Positions 13,927 through 51,316 are shown, counted from the first letter of the stretch. The stretch is 64,000 bases of DNA from Verrucomicrobiaceae bacterium (GCA_947458455.1 CANGYJ010000010.1:53832-117831), one strand, 5' to 3'. The notes: generated from the sequence alone by a model not told the origin. A program made the numbers and translations.

Positions 13927-13999
13927 GGCTCGGTAGCTCAGTCGGTAGAGCAGGGGATTGAAAATCCCCGTGTCGGCGGTTCGATTCCGTCCCGAGCCA
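13927..13999 (+). tRNA. tRNA-Phe (anticodon GAA)
   Basis: GGCTCGGTAGCTCAGTCGGTAGAGCAGGGGATTGAAAATCCCCGTGTCGGCGGTTCGATTCCGTCCCGAGCCA folds as a cloverleaf: 7-bp acceptor stem, T-loop GGTTCGATTCC, anticodon loop TTGAAAA. Confidence 0.97.
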
Positions 14000-14066
14000 C
14001 CTCTGGAACCTTTGATTTTACGAGGATCCAGCGGTTTTAAGGCATTTTGCAGTCTCAATAAGGAAT

Positions 14067-15022: not shown

Positions 15023-15229
15023 CTATTCCTTTGATTGCTGGGTGGCGTTGAGTTGCTGGCCGGGTGCATCGGCATCGTGGTAGCCATTCTTTGCCGGCGC
15101 GGGACTGGCCCGCAGGCCCGGAGTGACACTTTCGTCCCAGATGGCGATATCGGTGGTGATTTCGACATGGGTCACGACAGCGGCGGCCTTTTTCTCAGCC
15201 CGAGTGAGTTCGTCTGGGGTGGTTTTCAT
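15023..15229 (-). CDS. small hypothetical protein, translationally coupled to dodecin
   Basis: Starts MKTTPDELTRAEKK. Its ATG overlaps the dodecin stop codon (ATGA at 15226-15229). Confidence 0.5.
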   Translation of the reverse strand: MKTTPDELTRAEKKAAAVVTHVEITTDIAIWDESVTPGLRASPAPAKNGYHDADAPGQQLNATQQSKE

Positions 15230-15480
15230 GCGTCCTCCACGTTGAAGCCGACTTTGAGTGTGACCTGCCAATGATCGACCTTGCCTTTATCGATCGTGCC
15301 ACGTGTTTCGATGACCTGAAACCATTTCAAGTTCTTCACAGTCTTGTGAGCACGCTTGATGGCTTTTTCGACAGCGTCTTCGACGCTGGACTTTGAAGTG
15401 CCGGTAAGCTCGACGAGCTTATAGACGTGGTCCTTGGCTTTGGTTTCGGGCGGCGAGTCAGTCTTGGGTTTGCGGGGCAT
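15226..15480 (-). CDS. dodecin-family flavin-binding protein
   Basis: HVYKLVELTGTSKSSVEDAVEKAIKRAHKTVKNLKWFQVIETRGTIDKGKVDHWQVTLKVGFNVED fits the dodecin pattern. Start taken as MPRK (ATG 15480). Confidence 0.85.
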   Translation of the reverse strand: MPRKPKTDSPPETKAKDHVYKLVELTGTSKSSVEDAVEKAIKRAHKTVKNLKWFQVIETRGTIDKGKVDHWQVTLKVGFNVEDA

Positions 15481-15540
15481 AGGATGGTGGAAGTGAAGGT
15501 TCAAGAAGCAGCGGATCATCACCAGCACGCTCCATGGCCG

Positions 15541-15554
15541 CCATGGGGTGAAGA
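15541..15554 (-). promoter_or_regulatory. ACCCCATGG box, site 1 (upstream of dodecin)
   Basis: Minus-sense sequence is TCTTCACCCCATGG followed by CGGCC, 60 nt upstream of ATG 15480. Confidence 0.45.
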
Positions 15555-15555
15555 C

Positions 15556-15837
15556 CTACTCCTCGGCCTCCTCGAAGGCGGCGTGCAGACCAGGCTGGGC
15601 GAGATGGCCTTCAGCACCGCCGGGATCCGATTCCAAAGACCAGTAGGCCGCGCCCAGAGGGCCGCGCACGCAGGGCGGGACATGATCCTCACCGTAGATG
15701 TGGTTCAGGCCTAAGCGCAAACCAAAGGAAATGGGCGCGTGTTCCCCGGCCAGCGTGACGAGATTGCACACGCACATGGGCGCATCATGCAGTTGGCACG
15801 GCATGGAGCATTTTGAGCATGGATGGAGAGAGTGCAT
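15556..15837 (-). CDS. hypothetical Cys-rich protein
   Basis: 93-aa ORF between the DUF2934 and dodecin genes on the same strand, with GC-rich third codon positions. No recognised motif. Confidence 0.35.
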   Translation of the reverse strand: MHSLHPCSKCSMPCQLHDAPMCVCNLVTLAGEHAPISFGLRLGLNHIYGEDHVPPCVRGPLGAAYWSLESDPGGAEGHLAQPGLHAAFEEAEE

Positions 15838-15861
15838 GGCAGCGATCCCGTGTGTGATCTC

Positions 15862-16155
15862 TCAGGTATGGGCGAGGCCTTGCTCGGCACGGAGGGCTGC
15901 CTCAGCGGCGAGCCAGTGATCCACGTCGTGTCCATGGGCAGCACCATGGTTCTCATACAAGAGGTAGGCACGGAGGGCCACGGCTTCGGCGGAGGGAATA
16001 AAGGCGTGAGCGGAAGGCGAGGCATGCACGCTCTTCCCGTTGGAGGCTTTTCCGTTGGCAGGCTTTCCGTTGGAGAGCTTCGAGGCGTTACTGGGTGTTG
16101 CGAGATTTTGTTTCATAGGAGGCCGATCATCCCGAGCCACCTGCGTTTTAGCCAT
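15862..16155 (-). CDS. DUF2934-family protein
   Basis: The C-terminus AEAVALRAYLLYENHGAAHGHDVDHWLAAEAALRAEQ fits the DUF2934 pattern. Start is either ATG 16155 (inside the palindromic box) or in-frame ATG 16116. Confidence 0.7.
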   Translation of the reverse strand: MAKTQVARDDRPPMKQNLATPSNASKLSNGKPANGKASNGKSVHASPSAHAFIPSAEAVALRAYLLYENHGAAHGHDVDHWLAAEAALRAEQGLAHT

Positions 16156-16173
16156 GGGGTTTTTACCCCATGG
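16152..16173. promoter_or_regulatory. ACCCCATGG box, site 2 (perfect inverted repeat in a divergent intergenic region)
   Basis: CCATGGGGT-TTTT-ACCCCATGG lies between the divergent DUF2934 gene and the kinase operon. Confidence 0.5.
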
Positions 16174-16222
16174 CCCGATGACGCGCTGTTTGGCATGCTG
16201 CCGGAAACATGTGCCATCCATC

Positions 16223-16936
16223 ATGAATGAACCGACCCCGCTGAGCCGCCTCGAAGGCCGTTATCTCAAGGCGCTGCGCCATCACATCACTGATGATGCG
16301 GGCACGGCGCGGAACCGCCACCTCGGGGATCATGCGGTGGCCATCGGCCTGGAGACGTTGGATTTCGCCCGCATTCACGATCAGGCGCTGGCGAAGCTGC
16401 TGCCCGCCGCAGGCACGCCCAAGGAGCGGGAGGCGATGACCAAGCAGGCAGGTGAGTTCTTCACAGAGGCGGTCATGCCGCTGGAGGAGACCCACCGCAT
16501 CGCGCTGGAGGCCAGCGCCCATTTGATGGAGATCATCGAGACGCTCGGCAGGCGCACCGAGGAGCTGGCGAGCTCCAAACGCGAGCTTGAGCGGGAGACG
16601 AGCGACCGCGAGGCCTCCGAGGCAGCCTTGAAGAACAGCCACATCGCGTTTGATGCGCTGTTGCGTGAATCGCGGGTGCTGGAGGCGCAATTGAAGGGCA
16701 TGGCGCATCAAATCCTGCTCACAAACGAGCAGGAGAAGCACCTTGTCAGCAAGCAATTGCGCGACGAGATCGCCCAGACGCTGCTGGGGCTGCATGTCCG
16801 GCTGCTGGCACTCAAACAGGAGGTGACCGACAACCACGCCTCCATCACGCAGGAAATCGCCGCCACGCAGCAACTGGTGGAGGAGTCCGTGCAAACCATC
16901 CAACGCTTTGCCCTGGAACTAGTCCCCCCGTCATGA
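16223..16936 (+). CDS. truncated histidine-kinase paralogue (N-terminal helical domain plus DHp only, no phospho-acceptor His, no ATPase domain)
   Basis: Collinear with the first ~240 aa of the next gene. Its H-box reads EQEKHLVSKQLRDEIAQ, versus EEERKIISRELHDVIAQ in the kinase. It ends at the end of the DHp domain, and its stop overlaps the next ATG (ATGA at 16933-16936). Confidence 0.8.
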   Translation: MNEPTPLSRLEGRYLKALRHHITDDAGTARNRHLGDHAVAIGLETLDFARIHDQALAKLLPAAGTPKEREAMTKQAGEFFTEAVMPLEETHRIALEASAHLMEIIETLGRRTEELASSKRELERETSDREASEAALKNSHIAFDALLRESRVLEAQLKGMAHQILLTNEQEKHLVSKQLRDEIAQTLLGLHVRLLALKQEVTDNHASITQEIAATQQLVEESVQTIQRFALELVPPS

Positions 16937-18114
16937 AAGCTAAACTGCAAACCCTCGCCCGCAGCTATCGCGCCGCCCTCCAGCGTCATGTGCGCGGCGC
17001 GAAACACGCGAATCTTCAAACCGCGCGAAAACTCGGCCACCTGGCTGTGAGCGTTGGTCTTGAAACGCTTGACCTCGCCCGCATGCACGAGGAAGCCATG
17101 ACCGCGCTCATCCTGCCGGAGAACACGAAGCACAGCCGTGTGGGAGTGATCGGCCATGCGGGCGTTTTTTTTGCGGAGGCCCTTACTCCGATTGAAGAGA
17201 CCCACCGTGGTGCCCGCGAGGCGAACGTGCATCTGAAAGTCATCATCGAGACGCTCACACAGCGCACCGTGGAGCTGGCCGCATCCAACGAAGATCTCAA
17301 ACGCGAGATCGACCGCCGTCGCAGCGTGGAGGAATCTCTCCGCACCAGCGAGCAGACCTCCAGCCAGCTCCTGGAAAAATCCCGCCGCATGCAGGAGGAG
17401 TTGCGGCTGCTCTCCCGCCGCATGCTCTCCGCCCAGGAGGAGGAGCGCAAGATCATCAGCCGCGAGCTGCACGATGTCATCGCGCAGATGCTCACCGGCA
17501 TCAATGTGCGGCTCTCCTCGCTCAAGACGAAGTCCACCACCAGCACGCGGGAACTGCAAAAGAAGATCGAGGTCACCCAGCGCCTCGTGGAGAAGTCCGT
17601 GGACATCATCCACCGCTTCGCGCGTGATCTGAGGCCTGCTGTGCTGGATGATCTCGGCCTCATTCCGGCCATGCGCTCCTACTTGAAGCTCTTCACAGAG
17701 CAGACCGGCATTCGCACGTCCTTCACGGCCTTCGCCGAGGTCGAAAAGCTCAATGGAGCGAGCCGCACGGCTCTTTACCGCATCGCCCAGGAGGCGCTCA
17801 CGAATGTTTCGCGTCATGCGAAGGCCAGCGTGGTGAAAGTGAGCATCCGCCTCCGTCAGAATCGCATCTGCATGGAGATCCAGGACGATGGACGCGGCTT
17901 TCTGGTGGAGGACGCCGCCGCCATCCAGCACAGCAAGCGTCTCGGCCTGCTCGGCATGCGGGAGCGGGCTGAGATGGTCGGCGGCACCTTTTGTGTCGAT
18001 TCCGCGCCTGGAAAGCCCACCACCGTGCACATCGAGATTCCCAAGGATCAAAGCCGCGCCCGCAAAAAGGCTTCAGCAGGCCAGAAGAAACCCGCTCCCA
18101 TGACCTGCCCATGA
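16933..18114 (+). CDS. cytoplasmic sensor histidine kinase (HisKA_3/NarL-type), RsbU_N-like N-terminal domain
   Basis: H-box SRELHDVIAQ. HATPase boxes are EALTNVSRHA, QDDGRGF and GLLGMRERAEMVGG. No TM segment. N-terminal helical domain YRAALQRHV...LGHLAVSVGLETLDLARMHEEA. Confidence 0.9.
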   Translation: MKAKLQTLARSYRAALQRHVRGAKHANLQTARKLGHLAVSVGLETLDLARMHEEAMTALILPENTKHSRVGVIGHAGVFFAEALTPIEETHRGAREANVHLKVIIETLTQRTVELAASNEDLKREIDRRRSVEESLRTSEQTSSQLLEKSRRMQEELRLLSRRMLSAQEEERKIISRELHDVIAQMLTGINVRLSSLKTKSTTSTRELQKKIEVTQRLVEKSVDIIHRFARDLRPAVLDDLGLIPAMRSYLKLFTEQTGIRTSFTAFAEVEKLNGASRTALYRIAQEALTNVSRHAKASVVKVSIRLRQNRICMEIQDDGRGFLVEDAAAIQHSKRLGLLGMRERAEMVGGTFCVDSAPGKPTTVHIEIPKDQSRARKKASAGQKKPAPMTCP

Positions 18115-18791
18115 AAAACATCACCGTGCTCATCGCCGAGGATCACACCATCGTTCGCGAAGGCCTGCTCATGCTGTTGAAGCGTGAAGAGGGCATCGAA
18201 GTCATCGCCCAGGCCGAAGATGGACGCGAGGCCGTGAAACTCGCCGCGAAGCTCCAGCCCGACGTCATCGTCATGGACATCGCCATGCCACATCTCAATG
18301 GCATCGAGGCCACACGGCAGATCCTGCAGGAACGCCCGGAGGCGAAAGTGATCATTCTCTCCGCCCACAGCGATGACGCCTATGTGGAGGCCGTCATGGC
18401 GCTCGGTGCCTTCGGCTATCTCATCAAGCAAATCGCCAGCCAGGTGCTGCCGGAGGCCATCCGCCGTGTGCATCAGGGCAAAAAATGCCTCAGCCCTACC
18501 ATCGCCGAACGTCGCAAGCATCACCGCCAGCGTGCGCATGATCGCGGCGAGCTGCGCACCAGCAAAGACGCTCCCGTTTTAACCTCACGGGAGGTGGAAG
18601 TACTCCAACTTATTGCTGAAGGCCGTGCGAACAAAGAAAGCGCCCAGGAGCTGCACATCAGTGTGAAAACCATCGAAAAGCATCGCCAGAGCCTCATGGA
18701 CAAGCTCAACATCCACGACACCGCCGGGCTCACGCGTCATGCCATCGCCACCGGCATCATCGAGAGCAGCGTGCAGATCACGATTGTATGA
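18111..18791 (+). CDS. response regulator, NarL/FixJ family (REC plus LuxR-type HTH)
   Basis: MKNITVLIAEDHTIVREGL...DVIVMDIAMP. HTH is LTSREVEVLQLIAEGRANKESAQELHISVKTIEKHR. Its ATG overlaps the kinase stop (ATGA). Confidence 0.93.
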   Translation: MKNITVLIAEDHTIVREGLLMLLKREEGIEVIAQAEDGREAVKLAAKLQPDVIVMDIAMPHLNGIEATRQILQERPEAKVIILSAHSDDAYVEAVMALGAFGYLIKQIASQVLPEAIRRVHQGKKCLSPTIAERRKHHRQRAHDRGELRTSKDAPVLTSREVEVLQLIAEGRANKESAQELHISVKTIEKHRQSLMDKLNIHDTAGLTRHAIATGIIESSVQITIV

Positions 18792-18799
18792 AGCTTTTT

Positions 18800-18817
18800 G
18801 GGGTGATCACCCCATGG
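18800..18817 (+). promoter_or_regulatory. ACCCCATGG box, site 3
   Basis: GGGGTGATCACCCCATGG (perfect palindrome GGGGTGA/TCACCCC), 38 nt upstream of ATG 18856. Confidence 0.5.
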
Positions 18818-18855
18818 CGGCGTTTGCAAAGTGCGGCGAGCATGTGCGCCTCACC

Positions 18856-19158
18856 ATGAAACTCACCACCACTGCCTTCCTCGCTCTCACCACGCTATTC
18901 CTCGCCCATTGCAACAAGGAGAAAGCCGCCATTGATGCTCAAGCCCACGCTAGCAAAGAAGTCATCAATGACGAAAAGCGTGCCGTGAATGCCGCCGCCG
19001 AAAACGCCACCAAGCAGGCCGATCTCAACGCCGCCGTGGACAAGGCCAACATCGAGGCGAACAAGGAAATCACTCAGGCCCAGCTCGATGCCGACAAGAA
19101 AACGGCTGATGCCGAAGCTGCCGCCACCAAGGCCAAGATTGATGCCGCCGCGAAGTAA
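18856..19158 (+). CDS. lipoprotein with Ala/Lys/Asp-rich helical (LEA/apolipoprotein-like) repeats
   Basis: Lipobox LFLAHC after MKLTTTAFLALTT, followed by low-complexity AAxxAxKxA repeats. Confidence 0.7.
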   Translation: MKLTTTAFLALTTLFLAHCNKEKAAIDAQAHASKEVINDEKRAVNAAAENATKQADLNAAVDKANIEANKEITQAQLDADKKTADAEAAATKAKIDAAAK

Positions 19159-19176
19159 TCCCCCGCTTTCACGCCC

Positions 19177-19320
19177 ATGAATATAGTCCTCATTCTTCTC
19201 ATTGTGCTGCTACTTGGCGGTGGCGGCTATGGCTTCCGCTCTGGCAATCACTACCTCGGCGGCGCCGCCTCGCTCATCGTCATCATTCTCGTTGTTCTGC
19301 TGCTCATGGGACGCATCTGA
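19177..19320 (+). CDS. DUF3309-like small membrane protein (47 aa)
   Basis: MNIVLILLIVLLLGGGGYGFRSGNHYLGGAASLIVIILVVLLLMGRI: two hydrophobic helices with a Gly-rich loop and an ...LLLMGRI ending. Below the size cutoff of the ORF track. Confidence 0.6.
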   Translation: MNIVLILLIVLLLGGGGYGFRSGNHYLGGAASLIVIILVVLLLMGRI

Positions 19321-19347
19321 TGCAGCATCGGGTAACCAGCGGATCCC

Positions 19348-20203
19348 TTGAATCGCCTCCTGTCACTCCTGCGTGAGACGTTCCGCCAATGGGATGCCCA
19401 TCATGTGCCGAAGATGGGCGCGGCGCTGTCCTTCTACACCATCTTCTCACTCGCGCCGCTCGCCGTCCTGGTGCTTTCACTCGTCAGCATGGTGGTGGAG
19501 CGCCGTGCGGCGCGGGCGGAGATCGTCGGTCAGTTCAGAAACTTCGTCGGCCATGAGGGAGCCGAAGTGATGGAGATGATTTTGCCCCAAACCGCCGCGG
19601 AGAGCGCAGGCGAACTTCGCACGCTGATTGGCTTTGGTGTGCTGCTCATCGGTGCCTCCGGCGTGTTTGGTGAGCTACAGGACTCCTTGAACCAAATCTG
19701 GTGTGTTTCCTCGAGGCGTCACCCGGTCTTCATCTTGGTGAAGGAGCGTGTCTTCTCCTTCGCCATGGTTTTCGTCATGGGCTTCCTCATGCTCGTGTCG
19801 TTTTTTGTTTTCCGCCGCCGTCGCCGCAGCAGGTGGCTGGCTGCATACTCGCTTCCCCGGCCTGGACGCCTCATGGGATTTTAGCAATGCGGTGATCTCC
19901 GTGGTGGTGACCACGCTACTGTTTGCACTGATCTATCGCATGGTGCCAGACGTTCGCATTCCTTGGCGGGATGTCTGGCTGGGGGCGATGATCGCCGCCG
20001 TGCTCTTTGAAGCGGGGAAGTTCCTGCTCGGCTTCTACTATGGGCGCAGCGCCATCGCCTCCAGCTATGGCGCGGCGGGTTCGCTGATCATCATTTTGGT
20101 CTGGGTGTTTTATTCGGCTCAGATCCTCTTCTTCGGCGCGGCCTTCACGCGGGTGTATGCGCTGCGTTTCGGTTCGCACCGCACGGAGGAGGAAGTGGTC
20201 TGA
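19348..20203 (+). pseudogene. YihY/BrkB-family membrane protein, frameshifted in a T6 run
   Basis: The N-terminal part (frame of 19348) reads GAALSFYTIFSLAPL.... The C-terminal part (frame of 19748) reads AAVAAAGGWL...YGAAGSLIIILVWVFYSAQILFFGAAF. The two join if one T of TTTTTT (19801-19806) is removed. Confidence 0.7.
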
Positions 20204-20206
20204 CCT

Positions 20207-20383
20207 GGACTGCGGCAGCCTGCTGCCGCTTTCCGGTAGGCAGCCTGCTGCCTCCGAACGTCCCAGAGAATCGTCACGTTTGCCGCTCCAGCATGGGCGG
20301 GAGCCGATGGTGTTAAAGAATGCCTGTCGGACAAATCGCCAGCAGGCTGGCTTAGCAAAAGCGGCAGCAGGCTGCCGCAGTCC
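20207..20383. mobile_element. MITE-like palindromic element, copy A (177 bp)
   Basis: Terminal inverted repeats are GGACTGCGGCAGCCTGCTGCCGCT and AGCGGCAGCAGGCTGCCGCAGTCC. Inner repeats are AGGCAGCCTGCTGCC and GCCAGCAGGCTGGCT. No coding capacity. Confidence 0.6.
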
Positions 20384-20531
20384 ATGCCTATTTCACCGCG
20401 TCATGCTTCAGCGTTTCTTCAATCATCACTCGGATCGCGTGCAGATGCTCATCCGCCTGGCGAGCATAATGCAGCAGGCCGATCGTCGCTCCGAGCAGGC
20501 CTAAAGTCAGCAGTGCCAGCACCACGGTCAG

Positions 20532-20771
20532 CTAAGTGAGATAGTGCGTCAGCTTGGCGAGGTGCAGATGGATCAGCGCCTGCTCCTTGATGATGCTAAG
20601 GGATAGAATTGCACTCTTGGCTGCGGTCTTGGCCAGTTGAGGCCCAGGTGCCTGCGCCGTGTTCGCCGCCTCTTTGTAGATCTCCAGTAGCAACTCATCG
20701 GTGCTCAATGACAGATCATTCGCGATGGCGTCCGCACATTGCTCATCGGTCATTTCTTTTTCTTCAGTCAT
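20532..20771 (-). CDS. hypothetical small protein (frame continues past an amber codon)
   Basis: 79-aa ORF starting MTEEKEMTDEQ. The same frame stays open for 47 more codons after TAG 20532-20534 and encodes a TM helix. Confidence 0.4.
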   Translation of the reverse strand: MTEEKEMTDEQCADAIANDLSLSTDELLLEIYKEAANTAQAPGPQLAKTAAKSAILSLSIIKEQALIHLHLAKLTHYLT

Positions 20772-20812
20772 GGTAGAGCGTCCATGGGCTGGTTGTGGAG
20801 CATCCGCAAGGC

Positions 20813-20828
20813 GGGTTTCACCCCATGG
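20813..20828 (+). promoter_or_regulatory. ACCCCATGG box, site 4 (abutting MITE copy B)
   Basis: GGGTTTCACCCCATGG, identical to site 5. Its last bases overlap the start of MITE B. Confidence 0.4.
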
Positions 20829-21002
20829 ACTGCGGCAGCCTGCTGCCGCTATTGGGAGGCAGCCTGCTGCCGTCGAACGTCCCAGCGGCTTGTCACACTG
20901 TGCCGCTCACGCGTGGGCGAGAGCTGCTGAAGAAAAGAAAACTTATCGACCTTTGTGCCAGCAGGCTGGCTTGAAAAAAGCGGCAGCAGGCTGCCGCAGT
21001 CC
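20827..21002. mobile_element. MITE-like palindromic element, copy B (176 bp)
   Basis: Same terminal and internal inverted repeats as copy A, with a diverged centre. It lies between box 4 and the ATPase start codon. Confidence 0.6.
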
Positions 21003-21016
21003 ATGTTTATCACCCT

Positions 21017-23698
21017 ATGGAATCCCCACCTCCTGCGGCATGGCACGCCATCACCGCCGAGGAGGCCGCACACACGCTCGGCGTCACGGTGGCAACGGGA
21101 CTCAGCAAGGCCGAGGTCAAGCGGAGGCAAGCGGAAAGTGGGCCGAACAAAGTCAGCGCAAGGCGTGGCACACCGGCGTGGTTGAAGTTTCTCCAGCAGT
21201 TCCATCAACCGCTTGTTTATGTCATGCTCGTCGCGGTGGGCGCGACGTCGTTTCTCGGCGAGTGGGTGGATGCGGGCGTGATCGGGGCCATCGTGGTCGT
21301 GAATGCCATTGTCGGCTTTTTGCAGGAAACGAAGGCGGAAACAGCCATCGAAGCGCTGGCCAAAATGGTCGTCACCGAGGCGACGGTGCGGCGTGAGGGC
21401 AAAAAAGAGCGTGTACCGTCCGAATCGCTCGTGCCGGGTGAAGTGGTGCTTTTGCAGTCTGGCGACCGCGTGCCAGCGGAAATGCGTTTGATCGAGATTC
21501 GCAGCCTTCAGGTCGATGAATCGGCTCTCACAGGCGAATCCCTGCCAGTGGCCAAACAGCTCGATGTTTTGCCTGAAGGCACCGAACTGGCAGATCGCAC
21601 GAATTTGGCCTTTGCTGGCACTTTCATCACCAGTGGGCAGGCGGAGGGCGTCGTCTGCCTCATCGGCGACCAAACCGAGACGGGCCGCATCGCAGGCCTC
21701 ATCGCAGGCGCGGTGGAGATGTCCACACCGCTGACGAAACAGATCGCCCGCTTCAGCCAAATGGTGCTGTGGGTCATTCTGGGCCTCGCGGCGCTGACGT
21801 TTGCCGTGGGCGTGATGCGTGGCGAAAAACCAGCCAACATGTTCATGGCCGCCGTCGCTTTGGCCGTTGGTGCCATTCCAGAGGGCTTGCCAGCCGCGGT
21901 GACCATCGTTTTAGCAATCGACGTGTCACGCATGGCACGGCGGCAGGCCATTATCCGCAAGTTGCCTGCCGTGGAGACGCTCGGCAGCACCACGGTCATC
22001 TGCTCCGACAAAACCGGCACGCTCACGGAGAACCAAATGACCGTGCGGGAAGTCTTCGCGGGTGGCAGGCTCTTCACCGTCACCGGCAGCGGCTATGAAC
22101 CGAAGGGCGAGCTCTTGCTCGATGGCACTGCCGTGAAGCCGGAGGAGCATGCCGCGCTGGCGGAATGCCTCCGCGCTGGCCTGTTGTGCAATGATAGCCA
22201 GATCGTGCTCAAAGAAGGTCGCCATGCTGTGCAGGGCGATCCCACGGAGGCCGCGCTCATCGTCGCTGCTGAAAAAATGGGTCTCAAACACACGGCCACT
22301 CATCGCGAATCTCCCCGCGTGGACATGATCCCCTTTGAGTCGGAAAACATGTTCCGCGCCACGCTTCACGAAGATGAAGACGAGCGTGTCATTTACCAAG
22401 TGGGTGCGCTGGAGCGCCTGCTGGAGCGTTGCACCGACGTGCTCGGCGATGACTGCCAAACCACCCCTCTCGACAAAGCCGCTGTGCTCCGCAGCGCCGA
22501 TGCCATGGCCTCCCACGGCCTGCGTGTGTTGGCGATGGTGCGCAGGCAGGTGGACAAAGCCCACGACAACCTCGAAATCGAACACGTCGCCAAAGATCTG
22601 ACCTTCCTCGGCCTCCAGGGCATGATCGACCCGCCACGAGCCGCCGCCGTGGCCTCCGTCGCGAATTTCGCCCAAGCAGGCATCGCGGTGAAAATGATCA
22701 CGAGGGGTCATCTCATCACGGCGCGGGCGATTGCCACGCAGATCGGCCTGAAGGGCGTTGAAGCGCTCACTGGCAGCGATTTGGAAAAAATCGCCGACGC
22801 TGAGCTGCCGGAAATCGCCGAGCGCACCACCGTCTTTGCTCGTGTGGCACCGGAGCAGAAGTTGCGGCTCGTCAAAGCGCTGCAAGCACGCGGCCACATC
22901 GTCGCGATGACTGGCGACGGCGTGAATGATGCACCAGCGCTGAAGCAGGCCGATATCGGCGTCGCCATGGGCATCAGCGGAACGGATGTGGCCAAAGGCG
23001 CTGCCGCCATGATCCTCACCGACGACAACTTTGCGAGCATCGAGGCCGCCGTGGAGGAAGGACGCGGCGTGTATGACAACCTCACCAAATTCATCGTGTG
23101 GATCATCCCCACGAACCTCGGTGAATCGCTCATGCTGCTCTGCGCCATCATGCTGGGCTTGCCGCTGCCGCTCGTGCCGCTACAACTGCTGTGGATCAAT
23201 CTCACCGACACCGTGCTCGGCCTCTCGCTCGCCTTTGAGCCGAAGGAAGGCGACGTGATGAACCGTCCGCCGCGTCCCACGCAGCAGCCGCTGCTGCCCT
23301 GGCCGCTCATTCTGCGTTCCGGGCTCGTATCCTCCATCATGCTCGCCGTTGGGCTGGGCGTCTTTCTGTGGGAGCTGCGCATGGAAAACGCCGGCCTGGC
23401 CTCCGCCCGAACCGCTGTGGTGAATGTGATCGTGCTGGTGCAGGTCTTTTATCTCTTCAACTGCCGCGCTTTGAAGCACAGTGCACTGTCCGCCGGCCTA
23501 TTCAAGAACCGCTGGGTCGTCGCAGGAGCACTGACGATGCTGACCGCCCAGGTGCTCTTCACGCATAGCGCCCTGCTGAACCAACTCTTCCACAGCGCAC
23601 CCATCTCTGCCGGATCCTGGATCCGAGTCACCGCCGCCGCCGTCATCGTCTTCATCGTCGTCGAGATGGAGAAGTGGCTGCGGTTTCGGCGTGCGTGA
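21017..23698 (+). CDS. cation-transporting P-type ATPase (type II-like)
   Basis: 893 aa with LTGES, ICSDKTGTLT, TGDGVNDAPALKQADIGVAMG, a cation-ATPase N-terminal domain and about 10 TM segments. Confidence 0.93.
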   Translation: MESPPPAAWHAITAEEAAHTLGVTVATGLSKAEVKRRQAESGPNKVSARRGTPAWLKFLQQFHQPLVYVMLVAVGATSFLGEWVDAGVIGAIVVVNAIVGFLQETKAETAIEALAKMVVTEATVRREGKKERVPSESLVPGEVVLLQSGDRVPAEMRLIEIRSLQVDESALTGESLPVAKQLDVLPEGTELADRTNLAFAGTFITSGQAEGVVCLIGDQTETGRIAGLIAGAVEMSTPLTKQIARFSQMVLWVILGLAALTFAVGVMRGEKPANMFMAAVALAVGAIPEGLPAAVTIVLAIDVSRMARRQAIIRKLPAVETLGSTTVICSDKTGTLTENQMTVREVFAGGRLFTVTGSGYEPKGELLLDGTAVKPEEHAALAECLRAGLLCNDSQIVLKEGRHAVQGDPTEAALIVAAEKMGLKHTATHRESPRVDMIPFESENMFRATLHEDEDERVIYQVGALERLLERCTDVLGDDCQTTPLDKAAVLRSADAMASHGLRVLAMVRRQVDKAHDNLEIEHVAKDLTFLGLQGMIDPPRAAAVASVANFAQAGIAVKMITRGHLITARAIATQIGLKGVEALTGSDLEKIADAELPEIAERTTVFARVAPEQKLRLVKALQARGHIVAMTGDGVNDAPALKQADIGVAMGISGTDVAKGAAAMILTDDNFASIEAAVEEGRGVYDNLTKFIVWIIPTNLGESLMLLCAIMLGLPLPLVPLQLLWINLTDTVLGLSLAFEPKEGDVMNRPPRPTQQPLLPWPLILRSGLVSSIMLAVGLGVFLWELRMENAGLASARTAVVNVIVLVQVFYLFNCRALKHSALSAGLFKNRWVVAGALTMLTAQVLFTHSALLNQLFHSAPISAGSWIRVTAAAVIVFIVVEMEKWLRFRRA

Positions 23699-23707
23699 CA
23701 TGGACAT

Positions 23708-23732
23708 GGACTGCGGCAGCCTACTGCCGTCG
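23708..23732. repeat. solo/truncated MITE terminus, copy C
   Basis: GGACTGCGGCAGCCTACTGCCGTCG lies 10 nt after the ATPase stop. No partner arm is seen. Confidence 0.5.
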
Positions 23733-23919
23733 CCCAAGGGCTAATTTTCGAGAGAACTGCAATCCAATTACTCACCAACTCCCTCGCCATCACGGCTTCG
23801 AGTCGGAGCGCGAATGCCCTCGCCCGCCTTCATGGTGGCGACCCGTGGTCGCCATCGCAAGGCCGACAACGCGTCGGCACTCCATGCTCATTTGCCGAGC
23901 AAGAAGGCTCAATCGACGA

Positions 23920-26421
23920 TCACGGCAGCGTCACCTGCACGCGACCAAAGCACCTCGGAATCGCGGCGGTATCGTAGGGTTCCTCGTAGATCACGCGTTC
24001 CCAAGTGGCGTCGATCGAGATGACGGTCGGTAGGTCGGTCAGCGGCACCCAGGAGGCGGGATTGGCCAGCTCGCCGGATTTCTGCGGCGTGTAGATTAGG
24101 CCGCTATTCTTCCGCCGCAGGAACTCGAAGCGGAAGATGCTGGCACCGCCATTCGGCTGCGCGGTGATGCCTGGCAGGCCGCGGCTGCCACCGGGCGGCA
24201 TCGTCGCGGAATCCGACCCGCTGAGGTTCATGTTGAAGGCGTATTTGAGCAGGTTCTTCACGCCGTCTTGATATGGCGTGGCATCTAGCGCCGCATTCGG
24301 GCCGGTGAGACCGGCCGTGGTCATGGCGGCATCAAACACCTGGGCAGGAGTCAAGACGGCAGGAAGCGTGAAAGTGTAAGCCGCGCCAGCCAACATGGCG
24401 CTATTGTCCGCCTGATTGCCGCCCACCCCGGTGGCGTTGCTGGCCTCGCTGAGAGCTCCAATCACCACCGTGTCGCCCGACACGGCCACGGAGTTGCCGA
24501 AGTTATCACCCGCCCCGGTGTTGCTGGCTTTCAGGTAGGCCTGCTGCGTCCAGGTAATGCCGCTGCGGGTGAATACATAGGCGGCACCAGAATTGTTTGC
24601 GCTTTCGTTCGCCTGATTGCCGCCCACCCCGGTGGCGTTGCTGTCTTCGCTGGAAGCTCCAATGACCACCGTGTCGCCCAACACGGCAACGGAGCCGCCG
24701 AAGACGTCCCCCGCCCCGGTGTTGCTGGCTTTCAGGTAGGCCTGCTGTGTCCAAGTGCCGCCGCTGCGGGTGAAGACGTAGGCTGCGCCGGCGGTGGTGG
24801 CGCTGTTGTCCGCCTGATCGCCGTTCAGGCCGGTGGCGTTGCTGTCCTCCTCGACTGCCCCAATGACTACCGTGTCGCCCGACACGGCCACGGACCCGCC
24901 GAAAAAGTCCCCCACCCCGGTGTTGCTGGCTTTCAGGTAGGCCTGCTGCGTCCAAGTGCTGCCGCTGCGGTTGAACACATAGGCTGCGCCGGCATTGCTA
25001 GCACTGTTGTCCGCCTGATTGCCGTTCACCCCGGTAGCGTTGTCCTCTCCCCCTGCCCCGATGACCACCGTGTCGCCCGACACGGCCACGGAGGAGCCGA
25101 AGCCATCCTCCGCATCGGTGTTGCTGGCTTTGAGGTAGGCCTGCTGCGTCCAGGTGCTGCCGCTGCGGGTGAACACATAAGCTGCGCCGGCCTGGCTGGC
25201 GCTGTTGTCCGCCTGATTGCCGTCTACCCCGGTGGCGTTGCTAGCCTCGAGGTAAGCCCCGATGACCGCCGTGTCGCCTGACACAGCGACGGAGTAGCCG
25301 AACCAGTCCTCCGCCCCGGGGTTGCTGGCTTTTAGGTAGGCCTGCTGCGTCCAGGTACTGCCGCTGCGGGTGAACACATAGGCGGCACCGGAATTGTTTG
25401 CGCTTTCGTTCGCCTGATTGCCGTTCACTCCGGTAGCGTTGCTGTCCTCGCCGGAGGCTCCGATGACCAACGTGTCACCCGACACGGCCAAGGAGAAGCC
25501 GAAGCGGTCAGACACCCCGGGGTTGCTGGCTTTCAGGTAGGCCTGCTGGGTCCAGGCGCCGCCGCTGCGGGTGAAGATGTAAACTGCGCCGGAACTGATG
25601 GCGCTGTTGTTCGCCTGATTGCCGTTCACCCCGCTGGCGTTGCTGGACTCGCCGGAAGCCCCGATGATCACCGTATCGCCCGACACGGCCACCGAGCTGC
25701 CAAAGTTATCAAATACATCCGTGTTGCTCGCTTTCAGGTAGGCCTGCTGGGCGATGGGGTCGATGGTGATGGGATATTGGGCGGCGCTGTCGTCGTAGCG
25801 GACGGCGAAACCTTCCGCCGTGGCCTCGAAGTGGGTGGGGATAGTCTTGCCTGTGGCGTCCCAGGCTTTGAGGCCGGAGTAGGTGAGCTGGCCGCCGAAC
25901 CGGATGCTCTGGGGAGAGACGCTCGGCTTGAGATTGCCCCGGACGCGGAGGCGGATCTCCGCTGGAGCGCTGAGCGTCCAGCCTTGCTCCAAGCCGCGCT
26001 GGTCATTGACGAACCATTCGGTGATCGCCGGGGTGAGCTGGCGGCTGAGGCGGTTGGCCGTAGCTTCGAGTGGCATTCGAAGTCGCACGTCGCCAGAACT
26101 TCGAGTGCCACTCGAAGCTACTTCCAAACCCCAGGTCCATGCACCGTCCTCCGGCTGGGCGGTGAAGCCTTTGTCGTCGAAGGTCATTTGCCAGCCTTGG
26201 CCGGGATTCCGCGCCACATGGCTGCCATCCTCTTGTTTGAAGAACTGATGGCGGCCCGCCTCATACGCGGCGCGGATGCTGCTCCAGTCGGACTTGGCGA
26301 GCCCCTCGGGAACCTGGTCTGGGGAAGTAAGCTGCTGAGGCTTCGAAGCGGGCAGCGTCGCAGCGCGGGCAGAAAGCGTGCAGGCGAAGGAAACGAGAAT
26401 GAGACCGAGAATGGCTTTCAT
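23920..26421 (-). CDS. secreted repeat protein (FG-GAP-like beta-propeller repeats)
   Basis: 833 aa with a signal peptide and seven tandem ~67-aa units of the form QQAYLKASNxxxxDxFGxSVAVSGDTVVIGAxxExSNATGVxGNQADNSAxxAGAAYVFTRSGxTWT. Confidence 0.85.
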   Translation of the reverse strand: MKAILGLILVSFACTLSARAATLPASKPQQLTSPDQVPEGLAKSDWSSIRAAYEAGRHQFFKQEDGSHVARNPGQGWQMTFDDKGFTAQPEDGAWTWGLEVASSGTRSSGDVRLRMPLEATANRLSRQLTPAITEWFVNDQRGLEQGWTLSAPAEIRLRVRGNLKPSVSPQSIRFGGQLTYSGLKAWDATGKTIPTHFEATAEGFAVRYDDSAAQYPITIDPIAQQAYLKASNTDVFDNFGSSVAVSGDTVIIGASGESSNASGVNGNQANNSAISSGAVYIFTRSGGAWTQQAYLKASNPGVSDRFGFSLAVSGDTLVIGASGEDSNATGVNGNQANESANNSGAAYVFTRSGSTWTQQAYLKASNPGAEDWFGYSVAVSGDTAVIGAYLEASNATGVDGNQADNSASQAGAAYVFTRSGSTWTQQAYLKASNTDAEDGFGSSVAVSGDTVVIGAGGEDNATGVNGNQADNSASNAGAAYVFNRSGSTWTQQAYLKASNTGVGDFFGGSVAVSGDTVVIGAVEEDSNATGLNGDQADNSATTAGAAYVFTRSGGTWTQQAYLKASNTGAGDVFGGSVAVLGDTVVIGASSEDSNATGVGGNQANESANNSGAAYVFTRSGITWTQQAYLKASNTGAGDNFGNSVAVSGDTVVIGALSEASNATGVGGNQADNSAMLAGAAYTFTLPAVLTPAQVFDAAMTTAGLTGPNAALDATPYQDGVKNLLKYAFNMNLSGSDSATMPPGGSRGLPGITAQPNGGASIFRFEFLRRKNSGLIYTPQKSGELANPASWVPLTDLPTVISIDATWERVIYEEPYDTAAIPRCFGRVQVTLP
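24367..25749 (-). repeat. coding tandem repeat, ~201-bp period x7
   Basis: This is the DNA-level periodicity of the 67-aa units inside CDS 23920-26421. Confidence 0.8.
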
Positions 26422-26557
26422 TGCGGCATCTTAAGCATCGCCACATAATGACAACCTACGATTTAGTTTGATAACCCTTCAGATCGGTGGCCGAAACATG
26501 AGAGGACTCAGAGATTCAAGCTGGCTTTGAGAAGGCGCCACAATCCAAATAGTGGTA

Positions 26558-26573
26558 GGGTTTCACCCCATGG
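26558..26573 (+). promoter_or_regulatory. ACCCCATGG box, site 5
   Basis: GGGTTTCACCCCATGG followed by CGGG, 33 nt upstream of ATG 26607. Confidence 0.45.
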
Positions 26574-26606
26574 CGGGAAATGGGACGATGTGCTCCAGTG
26601 CGGCAC

Positions 26607-27035
26607 ATGCACACACACATCGGTCTCTGGATTGATCATCGCCGCGCGGTGATCGTTTTTCCCTCCAAACTCAGCGAGGAAGCCACCATCATCCTCTCCC
26701 AGGCGGAGCGGCATCAGCGACGTGCGGAAGGCGCCCTGCCCACCGAGGCCTTCGAGGCCCAACGCGTGCAGGCAGATGATGTGCAGGACCGCAAATTCGA
26801 GCATCAGATCCAGGGCTTTTATGATGAAGTCATCGCTGCGGTCAATGGCGCGGCGGCGTTGTTTGTGTTTGGACCCGGTGAAGCGAAAGGCGAGCTGGTG
26901 AAGCGTCTCGCCCATGAAAAGCCCACCACACGCAGCGTGAACGTGGAAACGGCCGATAAGATGACCGACCGGCAGATCGCCGCGAAGGTGCGTGAGCATT
27001 TCCAAAGCGACACGCCGGTGATCGTGCTGCGCTGA
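26607..27035 (+). CDS. host-attachment-protein / aeRF1-like small protein
   Basis: MHTHIGLWIDHRRAVIVF...LFVFGPGEAKGELVKRL...DKMTDRQIAAKV resembles the eRF1-domain-3/host-attachment fold pattern. An alternative start is ATG 26580. Confidence 0.6.
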   Translation: MHTHIGLWIDHRRAVIVFPSKLSEEATIILSQAERHQRRAEGALPTEAFEAQRVQADDVQDRKFEHQIQGFYDEVIAAVNGAAALFVFGPGEAKGELVKRLAHEKPTTRSVNVETADKMTDRQIAAKVREHFQSDTPVIVLR

Positions 27036-27037
27036 TT

Positions 27038-27055
27038 GGGGTGATGACCCCATGG
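27038..27055 (+). promoter_or_regulatory. ACCCCATGG box, site 6 (upstream of dps)
   Basis: GGGGTGATGACCCCATGG followed by CG, 34 nt upstream of dps ATG 27090. Confidence 0.5.
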
Positions 27056-27093
27056 CGTCAAAGTGCGACCAGCGCCTATCGCTCGGGCGATGA
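27052..27093 (+). promoter_or_regulatory. candidate 13-codon upstream ORF overlapping the dps start
   Basis: The ATG inside box 6 opens MASKCDQRLSLGR. Its TGA overlaps the dps ATG (ATGA at 27090-27093). Confidence 0.3.
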
Positions 27094-27584
27094 AAAACAA
27101 ACTCACCCACACGCGAAACAGTCTGCCGGAAAAAATACGCCTCGAAATGGCCTCTCTGCTTCAGGACCGGCTGGCGGACTCCATCGACCTGATGATGCAG
27201 GCCAAACAGGCCCATTGGAATGTGAAGGGGCCGAACTTCATCGCCCTGCACGAGCTTTTCGACAAGGTGTACACCGAGACCGGCGAGCACGTGGACCTCA
27301 TGGCGGAGCGGATCGTGCAACTCGGTGGCGTGGCGCGAGGCACGGTGCGTGTCGCGGCGGAAAAATCCACGCTGCCGGAATACTCCGTGGACATCTCCAG
27401 CGGTCGCAAACACGTCGCGGAGCTAGCCCACGCGATCGCCTTTTATGGCGAGCAAGTGCGCAAAGCCATCGAAACGGCCAACCAGCTCAAGGATGCCGAC
27501 ACGGCGGACATTTTCACCGAAGTATCCCGCAGTGCCGACAGCAGCCTGTGGATCGTCGAGGCGCATGAACAAGCCGAACATTGA
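27090..27584 (+). CDS. dps: DNA starvation/stationary-phase protection protein Dps
   Basis: Ferritin-like Dps motifs are present: QAKQAHWNVKGPNFIALHELFD and DLMAERIVQLGG. Confidence 0.95.
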   Translation: MKNKLTHTRNSLPEKIRLEMASLLQDRLADSIDLMMQAKQAHWNVKGPNFIALHELFDKVYTETGEHVDLMAERIVQLGGVARGTVRVAAEKSTLPEYSVDISSGRKHVAELAHAIAFYGEQVRKAIETANQLKDADTADIFTEVSRSADSSLWIVEAHEQAEH

Positions 27585-27591
27585 TCCCAAT

Positions 27592-28629
27592 ATGAAAGCA
27601 CTCGTTTACCACGGCCCCGGCTCGAAAAGCCTCCAGGACATGCCAAAGCCCGCCCTGCAGAATGCGACGGATGCCATCATTCGCATCACGAAGACCACCA
27701 TCTGCGGCACGGATCTGCACATCCTCAAAGGAGACGTGCCCAGCGTCACCGAAGGTCGCATCCTCGGCCACGAGGGCACCGGCGTCGTCGAAGAGATTGG
27801 CAGCAGCGTCACCCGCTTTCATGTGAGTGACCGCGTGATCATCTCCTGCATCACCGCCTGCGGAAAATGCGAATTTTGCCGCCGTGGCATGTGCTCTCAG
27901 TGCGAGCACGGCGGCTGGATTCTCGGCAACACCATTGACGGCACGCAGGCAGAGCATGTGCGCATCCCGTGGGCAGATACGAGCCTGCACCCCATCCCGG
28001 CGGACGCTGATGAGGAGGCCATGGTCATGCTCAGTGACATCCTGCCCACCGGCTATGAATGCGGCGTGCTGAATGGCTGCGTGAAGCCCGGCGACACCGT
28101 CGCCATCATCGGCGCGGGTCCCATCGGCCTCGCGGCGCTGCTCACGGCCCGTTTTTATGCACCGGCGGACATCATCATGATCGACCAGGATGAAAGCCGA
28201 CTCGACATCGCCAAAAAACTCGGTGCCACCATGCTCATCGACACCCGCGATGGCCGTGCGGTGGAGAAGGCCATGGCCATGACACTCGGCAAAGGCGTGG
28301 ACGTCGCCATTGAGGCCGTCGGCGTGCCGGAGACCTTTGAGCTGTGCCAGTCCATCATCGCCGCCGGAGGCCACATCGCCAATGTCGGCGTGCATGGTCA
28401 AAGCGTGCCGCTGCATCTGGAAACGCTGTGGTCGCGGAACATCACCATCACCACCCGCCTCGTGGATGCCGTGACGACGCCACTGCTGCTCAAAACCGTG
28501 ATCGCTGGCAAGCTGGAGCCGAAGCAGCTCATCACCCATCGTTTTGCCCTGCACGACGTGCTGGCAGCCTACGAGACCTTTGGCAACGCGGCCCGCGAGC
28601 GTGCGCTGAAGGTGATCCTCACTTGCTAG
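27592..28629 (+). CDS. zinc-dependent alcohol dehydrogenase (MDR family)
   Basis: GHEGTGVVEEIG, structural-zinc Cys cluster CGKCEFCRRGMCSQC, and Rossmann motif IIGAGPIGL. Confidence 0.92.
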   Translation: MKALVYHGPGSKSLQDMPKPALQNATDAIIRITKTTICGTDLHILKGDVPSVTEGRILGHEGTGVVEEIGSSVTRFHVSDRVIISCITACGKCEFCRRGMCSQCEHGGWILGNTIDGTQAEHVRIPWADTSLHPIPADADEEAMVMLSDILPTGYECGVLNGCVKPGDTVAIIGAGPIGLAALLTARFYAPADIIMIDQDESRLDIAKKLGATMLIDTRDGRAVEKAMAMTLGKGVDVAIEAVGVPETFELCQSIIAAGGHIANVGVHGQSVPLHLETLWSRNITITTRLVDAVTTPLLLKTVIAGKLEPKQLITHRFALHDVLAAYETFGNAARERALKVILTC

Positions 28630-28855
28630 ATCGCGAGGTAGAGCCCAGCGGCAACGAGTTGGCGAAGCAAAGTTATCCTCTCGCTCCGCGAGAGGACCAT
28701 GACGCATGGCAGGCTCGCAAGCTTTAGAACTCCCGTAACCGCGTGATTCGCGAGAGCCTAATGCTCATCTTGCGGAGCGAGATGGCCACTGTGCTGGCGC
28801 ACGTCCGCTGCCTTCATGTGATTGGAAGACTTCTCAACCTAGCTCGAATGAGTCT

Positions 28856-28873
28856 GGGGCATGCACCCCATGG
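28856..28873 (+). promoter_or_regulatory. ACCCCATGG box, site 7
   Basis: GGGGCATGCACCCCATGG, 33 nt upstream of ATG 28907. Confidence 0.45.
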
Positions 28874-28906
28874 TGAGGCATTCGTGACTGGGCGAGACTC
28901 ACGACC

Positions 28907-29320
28907 ATGAAATCTCACTCACCCCCTCCTTTCTTGCTCTTGGTCACCGCTTTCGCCGCTCTCGGCCTCGCCTCATGCGTCGTGCCGGGGAGTTACGACG
29001 ATGGCAGTTACGGGAGCCGCGGTCGCTCCTCCTACAGCAGCGGCGTCGGTATTTTCACCACCCTGCCTGTCGGCTACGCCGGAAACGCCTACTACCACGG
29101 CAACCGCTACTACTCCGGCGGTCGTTATGAAACCGGAGCCTTCAATTACCAGGGTCGTCGCTATGACAACCGCTACCAGCAAGGCAATGGCTCCTACCTC
29201 TACGGCGGTCAGCACCAGCACTACCCCGGCCATTCATCCTCCCACGGTCGCGGCTCACACGCCTCCTTGATGCCCGGCGCAGGTTTCCAACCCAGTTACT
29301 CCCCCTTCCGGCGGCCATGA
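28907..29320 (+). CDS. Gly/Tyr/Ser-rich lipoprotein
   Basis: Lipobox ALGLASC, followed by low-complexity G/Y/S/R-rich sequence. Confidence 0.6.
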   Translation: MKSHSPPPFLLLVTAFAALGLASCVVPGSYDDGSYGSRGRSSYSSGVGIFTTLPVGYAGNAYYHGNRYYSGGRYETGAFNYQGRRYDNRYQQGNGSYLYGGQHQHYPGHSSSHGRGSHASLMPGAGFQPSYSPFRRP

Positions 29321-45903: not shown

Positions 45904-45911
45904 TTCATCCC

Positions 45912-50004: not shown

Positions 50005-50050
50005 ACACGCATGTTCCGCGCATTATCCTCTATTGTCTATTCCCATCCTC

Positions 50051-51304: not shown

Positions 51305-51316
51305 ACCCGTCCCGCC

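Follow-up and report, generated by a model that had tools for sequence, protein, structure and literature searches.

The DosR (DevR) regulator of Mycobacterium tuberculosis, a NarL-family protein encoded in an autoregulated operon beside HisKA_3 kinases (DosS and DosT), is the described system most like the one treated here: a box built around the 9-mer ACCCCATGG, which recurs in front of stress genes in a 64,000-nucleotide stretch of DNA from a Verrucomicrobiaceae bacterium (GCA_947458455.1, CANGYJ010000010.1:53832-117831), referred to below as the window. The DosS and DosT kinases carry haem-GAF domains, and the targets of DosR in M. tuberculosis include the P-type ATPase CtpF. At the hspX promoter, where the -35 element is suboptimal, the centre of the DosR box falls on -43.5, and the bound dimer touches alpha as well as region 4 of sigma-A (PMC13486717). 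Between the mapped start and the near end of a proximal Dev box there are 33-35 bp; in each 10-bp half-site the bases read by DevR are G4G5G6, located 4.5-6.5 bp away from the dyad (PMC3177182).

The likeness extends to the DNA. The box in the window is an inverted repeat of about 20 bp with G/C arms and an A/T centre, its runs of G and C lie at the same positions, 4.5-6.5 bp from the dyad, and its location as predicted from sequence, at -43.5 over a weak -35 element, is that of a proximal DosR site. The genes behind it are survival and stress genes, including divergent pairs that have a site in common. The differences concern both the site and the proteins. The sequence is GGGGT-N4-ACCCCAT here and GGGACT-WW-AGTCCC in the Dev box; DevR promoters all have two or more boxes, but those here have one each, no tandem copy occurring at any fixed offset; the input region of the kinases is RsbU_N-like, with no GAF domain found by Pfam; and the regulator comes from a different phylum and is not a DevR orthologue.

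In the 'lux box' promoters of LuxR and TraR, a GerE-type dimer occupies an 18-22-bp dyad over a poor -35 element, near -42.5. The arrangement predicted here, a site for a GerE-type helix-turn-helix dimer overlapping a poor -35, is similar, but the regulator has a phospho-receiver in place of an acyl-homoserine-lactone-binding domain and the motif is unrelated. The EcfG/PhyR (Alphaproteobacteria), SigB (Firmicutes) and RpoS (Gammaproteobacteria) regulons have a similar kind of gene content, and RsbU_N- and RsbRD_N-type domains occur among the signalling proteins found here; in contrast to these sigma-run regulons, a dyad upstream of a housekeeping-type -10 takes the place of a sigma-specific -35/-10 pair. 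In Vibrio, RsbU_N output modules of the RsbRST stressosome feed two-component kinases. The kinase of the window has an RsbU_N-like N-terminus (a weak match) and an RsbRD_N protein is among the box targets, but no RsbR, RsbS or RsbT genes were seen in the window cluster.

We propose, with a probability of roughly 0.6, that the box is a dimer-bound operator overlapping stress promoters, that the NarL/FixJ regulator encoded in the same cluster is its candidate binder, and that this regulator would act by autoregulated, class-II-type activation. As a mechanism the proposal is nothing new in principle: a NarL-family operator in a class-II-type position, within a DosR-type architecture. What appears to be undescribed is the regulon, with its motif and its candidate master regulator, all of which are conserved across the little-studied phylum Verrucomicrobiota. 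Full-text searches met ACCCCATGG only in sequence strings that have no relation to it, for example primers and barcodes, and found no paper that combines Verrucomicrobia, leaderless mRNAs and transcription start sites; among the matches for Verrucomicrobia, general stress response and response regulator, none describes such a stress regulator.

The box and the promoter it belongs to

An exact search of both strands of the window found eight copies of ACCCCATGG at seven intergenic loci between 15.5 and 28.9 kb (15541-, 16152-, 16165+, 18809+, 20820+, 26565+, 27047+ and 28865+) and no further copy elsewhere in the 64 kb, while dinucleotide-preserving shuffles of the window, used as the chance model, gave a mean of 0.47 and a maximum of 3. 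Allowing one mismatch added matches at background level only. A position matrix (PWM) derived from the orthologue-locus sites described below, together with a motif search, revealed no convincing box in the remaining 51 kb; the two marginal PWM matches outside the cluster lie at 8354+ (inside polA) and at 63150-, and a copy of ACCCCATGC at 38105 has neither a left half nor a -10.

Gene calls were those of an ENA metagenome scaffold (L001) identical in sequence to the window, with Pfam annotation added. An earlier interpretation of the window made without any database (the sequence-only reading) agrees with them in its gene list and in placing all seven loci between genes, each facing a gene. 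Its count of eight copies with none elsewhere in the window was reproduced, as were the 16-mer common to sites 4 and 5 (GGGTTTCACCCCATGG) and the gap of 33-38 nt between box and ATG at five sites (DUF2934 gene 35, LEA-like lipoprotein 38, 142-aa gene 33, Dps 34, Gly/Tyr-rich lipoprotein 33). Its description of the box as a GGGGT-N4-ACCCC palindrome holds exactly at three loci; at the others the left arm is degenerate and reads GGGTTTC, GGTCTTC or GGGGCATGC. Three units of the neighbourhood have no box, namely a 79-aa gene (20532-20771, minus strand), an FG-GAP gene and a 55-aa open reading frame (ORF). With the A of ACCCC numbered +1, the boxes and the promoter elements and starts behind them are as follows.

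15541-15558, minus strand: box 1 (TAGGTCTTC-ACCCCATGG), dodecin promoter, PWM score 27.2; -10-like GATGAT at 15515-15520; dodecin ATG at 15480 (+70), leader about 28 nt
16152-16173, both strands: box 2, a perfect 22-bp palindrome (CCATGGGGT-TTTT-ACCCCATGG), PWM scores 24.8 and 26.5; leftward, -10 GATGAT at 16126-16131 and DUF2934 ATG at 16116 (+45); rightward, -10 CATGCT at 16194-16199 and operon ATG at 16223 (+59) or in-frame GTG at 16211
18800-18817, plus strand: box 3 (GGGGTGATC-ACCCCATGG); -10-like GAGCAT at 18838-18843; ATG at 18856 (+48) of an LEA-like lipoprotein gene, followed by DUF3309 (19177-19320) and BrkB/YihY (19414-20203)
20811-20828, plus strand: box 4 (GCGGGTTTC-ACCCCATGG), before the P-type ATPase gene, with a miniature inverted-repeat transposable element (MITE) in between
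26556-26573, plus strand: box 5 (TAGGGTTTC-ACCCCATGG), PWM score 23.5; -10 region TCCAGT at 26594-26599, non-consensus
27038-27055, plus strand: box 6 (GGGGTGATG-ACCCCATGG); -10 TATCGC at 27077-27082, one base beyond the usual distance
28856-28873, plus strand: box 7 (GGGGCATGC-ACCCCATGG); -10-like GAGACT at 28894-28899

Relatives of the regulator, one genome per species, supplied 80 loci in which the regulator is 57-92% identical. Nearly all are from Verrucomicrobiota (Verrucomicrobiaceae/Prosthecobacter and Opitutaceae); the few with other taxon labels may be mis-binned contigs. These orthologous regions, which the sequence-only reading had proposed as the place to look, yielded 127 distinct ACCCCATGG sites. 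In most Verrucomicrobiaceae a locus has several of them, in Opitutaceae fewer. The box is thus of old standing and conserved, rather than confined to one contig.

An alignment of 91 non-redundant sites, for whose selection A+31 and T+35 were not required, shows a single conserved block besides the box, tAnnnT at +30 to +35; A+31 occurs in 63/91 of the sites, and T+35 likewise in 63/91. The distance between the two is rigid: ACCCCAT-N23-A-N3-T has 194 matches, and other offsets from 20 to 26 give 7-28. When positions +6 to +9 are left free, GG-N5-ACCCC-N25-A-N3-T matches 164 times, against 8-36 at other offsets, and the four free positions then read ATGG (66), ATCG (23), ATTG (17), ATAG (13) or other tetramers starting with AT. 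Because they read AT-n-G even when free, the true core is (g/t)(g/t)nGG(t/g)nWWC-ACCCCAT-n-G, an asymmetric dyad in which position 8 is free and the left half degenerate. In that left half G-6 is present in 142/157 sites and G-5 in 117/157, mirroring C+3 and C+2 about the dyad. The TAnnnT hexamer starts 20-21 bp past the box, or 22 bp past ACCCCAT. Among strong sites, 182 of 450 (40%) score on both strands; 52 palindromic boxes, box 2 of the window among them, are flanked on each side by a -10 at the right distance, and 27 of the 52 have ORF starts in both directions as well. The A+31/T+35 signature is found at five of the eight half-sites of the window, box 6 being off by one, box 5 non-consensus and box 4 severed by the MITE.

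If TAnnnT is taken as the -10 element (-12 to -7), the 9-mer is predicted to lie at -41 to -33, with the dyad centre at -43.5; its T7 and G9 would then coincide with -35 and -33, where a TTGACA-type -35 has its two key bases. In this numbering T-12 is present in 77/157 sites, and of the -35 region only T-35 and G-33 (116/157) are kept, both of them last bases of the box, so that a suboptimal -35 stands with a recognisable -10. A simple sigma-70 consensus scan of the window found none of the box promoters, as expected from the poor -35.

Start codons of long ORFs are located at +41 to +48 behind 22/91 sites, against 4.7% of random positions, and behind 119/285 under a looser site definition. 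The ATG thus falls 6-13 nt past the hexamer, implying leaderless mRNAs or mRNAs with very short leaders; in a smaller set the ATG is located near +104, for a leader of about 60 nt. Nearly all window genes lack a Shine-Dalgarno sequence, which makes its absence unusable as evidence here, and the argument for leaderless mRNAs therefore rests on geometry. TAnnnT-like hexamers also stand 5-7 nt before the ATG at several non-regulon genes, for example at 26421(-), 11611(+) and 10723(-), and the start region of the FG-GAP gene reads TAAGAT-gccgca-ATG; leaderless mRNAs may be common in this organism.

The same geometry bears on what kind of element the box is. The sequence-only reading had put a regulon operator and a stem-loop on an equal footing, the latter a conserved structure in the 5' untranslated region whose GGGGU/ACCCC arms would act on mRNA stability or translation. 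The operator gains from the retention of the box at Verrucomicrobiota orthologues, from the rigid distance to the -10 and from the association with the kinase/regulator operon described below; the stem-loop fared badly and is, in our estimate, extremely improbable. Three window sites do fold better than shuffles (z of -4.9, -2.9 and -1.7), but the other four of the seven do not (z of at least -0.2), at least four of the five pairs can form in only 39/157 non-redundant sites, and the left arm varies without compensation. The box also precedes the rigidly spaced -10 hexamer and should therefore not be transcribed from these promoters, and in the window Rfam at gathering thresholds reports only tRNA-Phe. 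Fainter still is the prospect of a generic dispersed repeat, such as the remains of a REP- or MITE-like element, without any part in regulation. Real MITE copies lie nearby in the window, but the box has only about 20 bp conserved between unrelated flanks, is always oriented towards a gene at fixed spacing to the -10 hexamer and the start codon, has been kept before orthologous genes where the regulator is only 57-92% identical, and has no copies in the other 51 kb; a scan of metagenomes (below) gave no sign of such a repeat among the matches listed, the spacing to the -10 and to start codons being fixed there too. The box is a promoter element, neither an RNA hairpin nor a dispersed repeat.

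Within a promoter, the box might serve a dedicated alternative sigma factor, for example the ECF sigma of the regulon, as its -35-type element. General stress regulons are usually sigma-controlled (SigB, RpoS, EcfG), an ECF gene lies directly behind a box in 18-19 genomes, and ECF sigmas often drive their own genes. We regard this as very unlikely nonetheless, since the gap of 20-22 bp exceeds the 16-19 bp spacers of the sigma-70 family, the -10 is a housekeeping-type TAnnnT and not the CGT type of ECF promoters, and no positions 16-17 bp upstream of the box are conserved. Moreover, G-6 and G-5 are kept where there is no divergent gene (boxes 3, 6 and 7), which indicates a dyad-binding dimer, the site is used in both directions, and the window cluster contains no sigma gene, ECF sigma genes included. 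Three further roles were considered and rejected. As a -10 with a leader of about 30 nt, the box would again be without any conserved sequence 16-17 bp before it, and the position of TAnnnT is set by the box, not by the ATG. A sigma-54 promoter of the -24/-12 type, seen in TGGC..TTGC after the box, has a spacing that is off by 1-2 bp and variable (checked by eye). As a terminator of the upstream gene, the box lacks a T-run after the stem, and a terminator scan reports no box.

The NarL-type regulator as candidate binder

The regulator consists of a receiver (Response_reg, 5.7e-30 in Pfam) and a GerE helix-turn-helix domain (1.1e-17), and is encoded beside a HisKA_3 kinase, next to the sites; its orthologues can be told by a C-terminal GIIESSVQVTI tail. 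In the kinase, Pfam recognizes HisKA_3 (2.9e-13) and HATPase_c (4.9e-14), preceded by the RsbU_N-like match, which at E = 0.0019 is weak and below the Pfam cut-off. The first gene of the operon, gene 'A', is 42% identical to the N-terminal 235 residues of the kinase and has no ATPase domain; an arginine replaces the phospho-accepting histidine (LRDEIAQ against LHDVIAQ). Its product is probably a pseudo-kinase or kinase modulator, and the gene has been kept at the operon head in Verrucomicrobiaceae.

The cluster regulator is put forward as binder because of the dyad form of the site, its G/C arms with an A/T centre, its autoregulatory position and the neighbouring NarL/GerE gene. The site is an inverted repeat of about 16-22 bp, a size suited to a dimer, with a degenerate distal half; the window has a perfect 22-bp palindrome at 16152-16173. 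That palindrome is common to two divergent promoters, of the DUF2934 gene leftward and of the pseudo-kinase/kinase/regulator operon rightward. Among the loci with enough upstream sequence, 41/65, from two families, have a strong coding-strand box upstream of the kinase/regulator operon; counted from the regulator start it lies at -1945 where pseudo-kinase, kinase and regulator follow one another, at about -1260 for kinase and regulator, and at -80 to -400 for the regulator alone.

A test blind to genes was made by scanning JGI metagenome contigs for GGGGT-N4-ACCCCATGG without any gene reference, which gave at least 120 stretches with 130 sites; the results that follow refer to the matches listed. 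The A..T signature begins at +31 in 43 of the 130 sites and at +32 in 25, other offsets accounting for 2-12 each, and a start codon is present at +40 to +52 in 44/124 evaluable sites. Per 100 kb, these box-bearing contigs have 35 PWM sites and shuffled sequence has about 2. One contig has up to 11 sites, so the genes are grouped in islands, as in the window. Of these short loci, chosen by the box alone, 8/120 contain an orthologue of the regulator; by our estimate this is far above the expectation for one gene in a genome of several Mb, without amounting to proof.

The same figure can be read the other way. The promoter design would be unchanged if the box were bound by another transcription factor encoded elsewhere, a global stress regulator to which the kinase/regulator operon would be one more target. 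An orthologue in only 8/120 loci, with sites forming many separate clusters, is compatible with this; sequence alone names no binding protein, and the DNA-binding domain of the regulator has no characterized close relative with a similar motif. On the other hand, the box stands before the regulator's own operon in the 41/65 loci given above, and positive autoregulation is the usual pattern of two-component systems. This kinase/regulator family is also the top target group in the unbiased metagenome set (among the matches listed), a G-rich inverted repeat with an A/T centre suits GerE-type dimers such as DevR, and no DNA-binding gene other than that of the ECF sigma recurs in these loci. We consider another binder unlikely, and it is the main residual doubt about the cluster regulator.

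The recognition of the site offers little discrimination. Across 89 orthologues with an overall identity of 56-100%, the helix-turn-helix region of the regulator, IS[IV]KT[IV]EKHRQ.LMDKLNIHDTAGLTR, hardly varies. Such a near-invariant recognition helix is consistent with the invariant ACCCCAT core, in a parallel that does not discriminate between binders, and co-variation of helix and box was abandoned as a test because both are nearly invariant. One group of Opitutales (L059, L061, L071, L072, L074, L079 and L082) has a relaxed autoregulatory core, ACC[CGT][CT]ATCGC, upstream of the kinase/regulator genes, with TTTAAT or TTCAAT as -10; its recognition helix is unchanged. The closest solved structures to the regulator are VraR, DesR, NarL and DevR, with DevR sixth-best and whole-protein scores of 139 bits for VraR against 93 bits for DevR. 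When the DNA-binding domain was searched alone, EsrB/SsrB, LiaR and VraR came out on top and DevR was absent from the matches.

Several points weigh against the operator and binder proposed here. The parallel with DosR is one of architecture and not of orthology, given that the DNA-binding domain is nearer to EsrB/SsrB, LiaR and VraR. The 80 orthologue loci were picked for carrying the regulator, which biases the linkage, and in the unbiased metagenome set most boxes, among the matches listed, are not beside a regulator gene. The predicted position at -43.5 depends on reading TAnnnT as the -10, in uncultured organisms. The weakness of the promoter-distal half-site makes binding by a symmetric dimer uncertain. 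An ECF sigma gene is itself a frequent target, so that some of the stress response may be run through a second tier. Finally, a site that overlaps the -35 could be a repressor operator.

In that last case, the NarL-type regulator or another protein would cover the -35 and keep the stress genes off until release. Repressors commonly work by occluding the -35, and the box covers -54 to -33, including the only conserved -35 bases. The core elements are weak, however: only T-35/G-33 and A-11/T-7 are kept, and the -10 sequences in the window are GATGAT, CATGCT, GAGCAT and GAGACT. Weak cores are typical of activator-dependent promoters, the position at -43.5 is the same as that of the activator DosR, and the strongly conserved half-site is always promoter-proximal, as would be expected for contact with the polymerase. 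Repression therefore seems quite improbable to us.

We infer the three central elements of activation by the cluster regulator, namely the candidate binder, activation over repression and the position of the transcription start. A regulator dimer would sit on the box, just upstream of the core promoter and overlapping it, on a promoter made up of an asymmetric dyad, a poor -35 (T-35, G-33) and a TAnnnT -10 located 20-21 bp past the box. The adjacent soluble HisKA_3 kinase would phosphorylate the NarL/FixJ regulator (18111-18791), and the phosphorylated regulator would recruit RNA polymerase via sigma region 4 and the alpha subunit, as DosR does. It would thereby raise the expression of its own operon, and a fully palindromic box, such as that at 16152-16173, could serve two divergent promoters at once.

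The genes behind the box

ORFs behind 555 sites were clustered and representatives annotated. The largest cluster, a loose single-linkage group, comprises signalling proteins behind 82 sites, 26 of them from the unbiased set (among the matches listed): the pseudo-kinase, HisKA_3 kinases including PAS-HisKA_3 proteins, receiver-only proteins and NarL-type regulators of the same family. Genes of these kinds head the targets in a sample chosen without regard to genes, a further point in favour of the operator of the sequence-only reading. Further targets encode BON-domain (OsmY-like), DUF4142, CsbD, OsmC and Dps proteins; dodecin, DUF2934, DUF3309, PRC-barrel, glycine-zipper, YkuD, RsbRD_N and entericidin-like proteins; ice-binding-like/NHL proteins and a P-type ATPase; and a KaiC-like protein, acetate kinase and phosphoketolase, these last three named from sequence alone. 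To judge by these predicted products, the content is that of a general stress or dormancy regulon.

The ECF sigma genes directly behind a box encode proteins of 225-252 aa and have their ATG at +43 to +46. They were found in L033, L034, L036, L040 and other Opitutaceae, often adjoining the regulator gene, which suggests a second regulatory tier. Tentatively, and at somewhat short of even odds, the general stress response of Verrucomicrobiota may be run by an autoregulated two-component system, made up of a soluble RsbU_N-type HisKA_3 kinase, a pseudo-kinase without the histidine and a NarL-type regulator, and not by an alternative sigma factor. A single dyad at -43.5 of housekeeping-type promoters would then carry the response, often with two divergent leaderless transcripts from one dimer site, and the ECF sigma would form the second tier.

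Soil, fresh water and the gut are rich in Verrucomicrobiota, but hardly anything is known of the control of their transcription. The box provides a sequence-defined handle on a phylum-wide stress/dormancy regulon, with a candidate master regulator and a list of targets, and on a predicted promoter design in which a dyad at -43.5 and a weak -35 go with leaderless mRNAs. In metagenomes, membership of the stress regulon can be read from the boxes. They are also of use in annotation, where an ATG inside the box is sometimes called as start, the true starts being at +41 to +48.

The stress cluster in the window

Apart from the boxes, the cluster contains the following features.

15226-15480, minus strand: dodecin gene
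15862-16116, minus strand: gene of the DUF2934 protein
16223-18791, plus strand: operon for the 237-aa protein, the HisKA_3 kinase and the NarL/GerE response regulator
16223-16936, plus strand: gene 'A', 237 aa, operon head, paralogue of the N-terminal half of the kinase
16933-18114, plus strand: soluble sensor histidine kinase, 393 aa, with RsbU_N-like (weak), HisKA_3 and HATPase_c regions
18111-18791, plus strand: NarL/FixJ-family response regulator, 226 aa, receiver and GerE helix-turn-helix, candidate box binder
20824-21005, no strand: MITE-like insertion of about 180 bp with terminal inverted repeats CATGGACTGCGGCAGCCTGCTGCCGC; second copy at 20203-20386
21017-23698, plus strand: P-type ATPase gene
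26607-27035, plus strand: conserved 142-aa gene with no family match, ATG at 26607 (+43) behind box 5
27090-27584, plus strand: dps, ATG at 27090 (+44) behind box 6, followed by a Zn-dependent alcohol dehydrogenase gene at 27565-28629
28907-29320, plus strand: Gly/Tyr-rich lipoprotein gene, ATG at 28907 (+43) behind box 7

The MITE that the sequence-only reading had placed between site 4 and the ATPase gene is real, with terminal inverted repeats of about 30 bp. In two relatives without it (L006 and L008), the ATPase ATG follows the A of the box at +45/+46; in the window strain the insertion puts 182 bp between box 4 and its core promoter and has probably uncoupled the ATPase promoter from the box. 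The MITE is not part of the regulatory system.

At box 3, the public start of the LEA-like lipoprotein is an ATG within the box (ACCCC-ATG-G, at 18814, or 10704 in L001), giving a protein of 114 aa as compared with 100 aa from the ATG at 18856. Calling a start inside the box may be a recurring annotation error for genes of the regulon. Further along the same unit, the BrkB/YihY homologue is split into two ORFs in different frames (19414-19884 and 19901-20203), which match positions 9-135 and 170-257 of the Pfam model. The split is also found in strain L004 and is either a true two-gene arrangement or a common frameshift.

Immediately to the left of the stress cluster is a tRNA-Phe gene (13927-14001). 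A metagenome contig (L002) is identical to the window to the right of about 14000, while its leftward part (L002 1-5900) is unrelated and contains a phage-type integrase; the arrangement has the look of a strain-variable island located at the tRNA. Further right in the window (42000-60000), GC skew takes strongly negative values, between -0.13 and -0.34 over 40-54 kb and again around -0.22 over 56-60 kb. This stretch starts within an ORF of 2581 aa (38158-45903) and is unrelated to the box.

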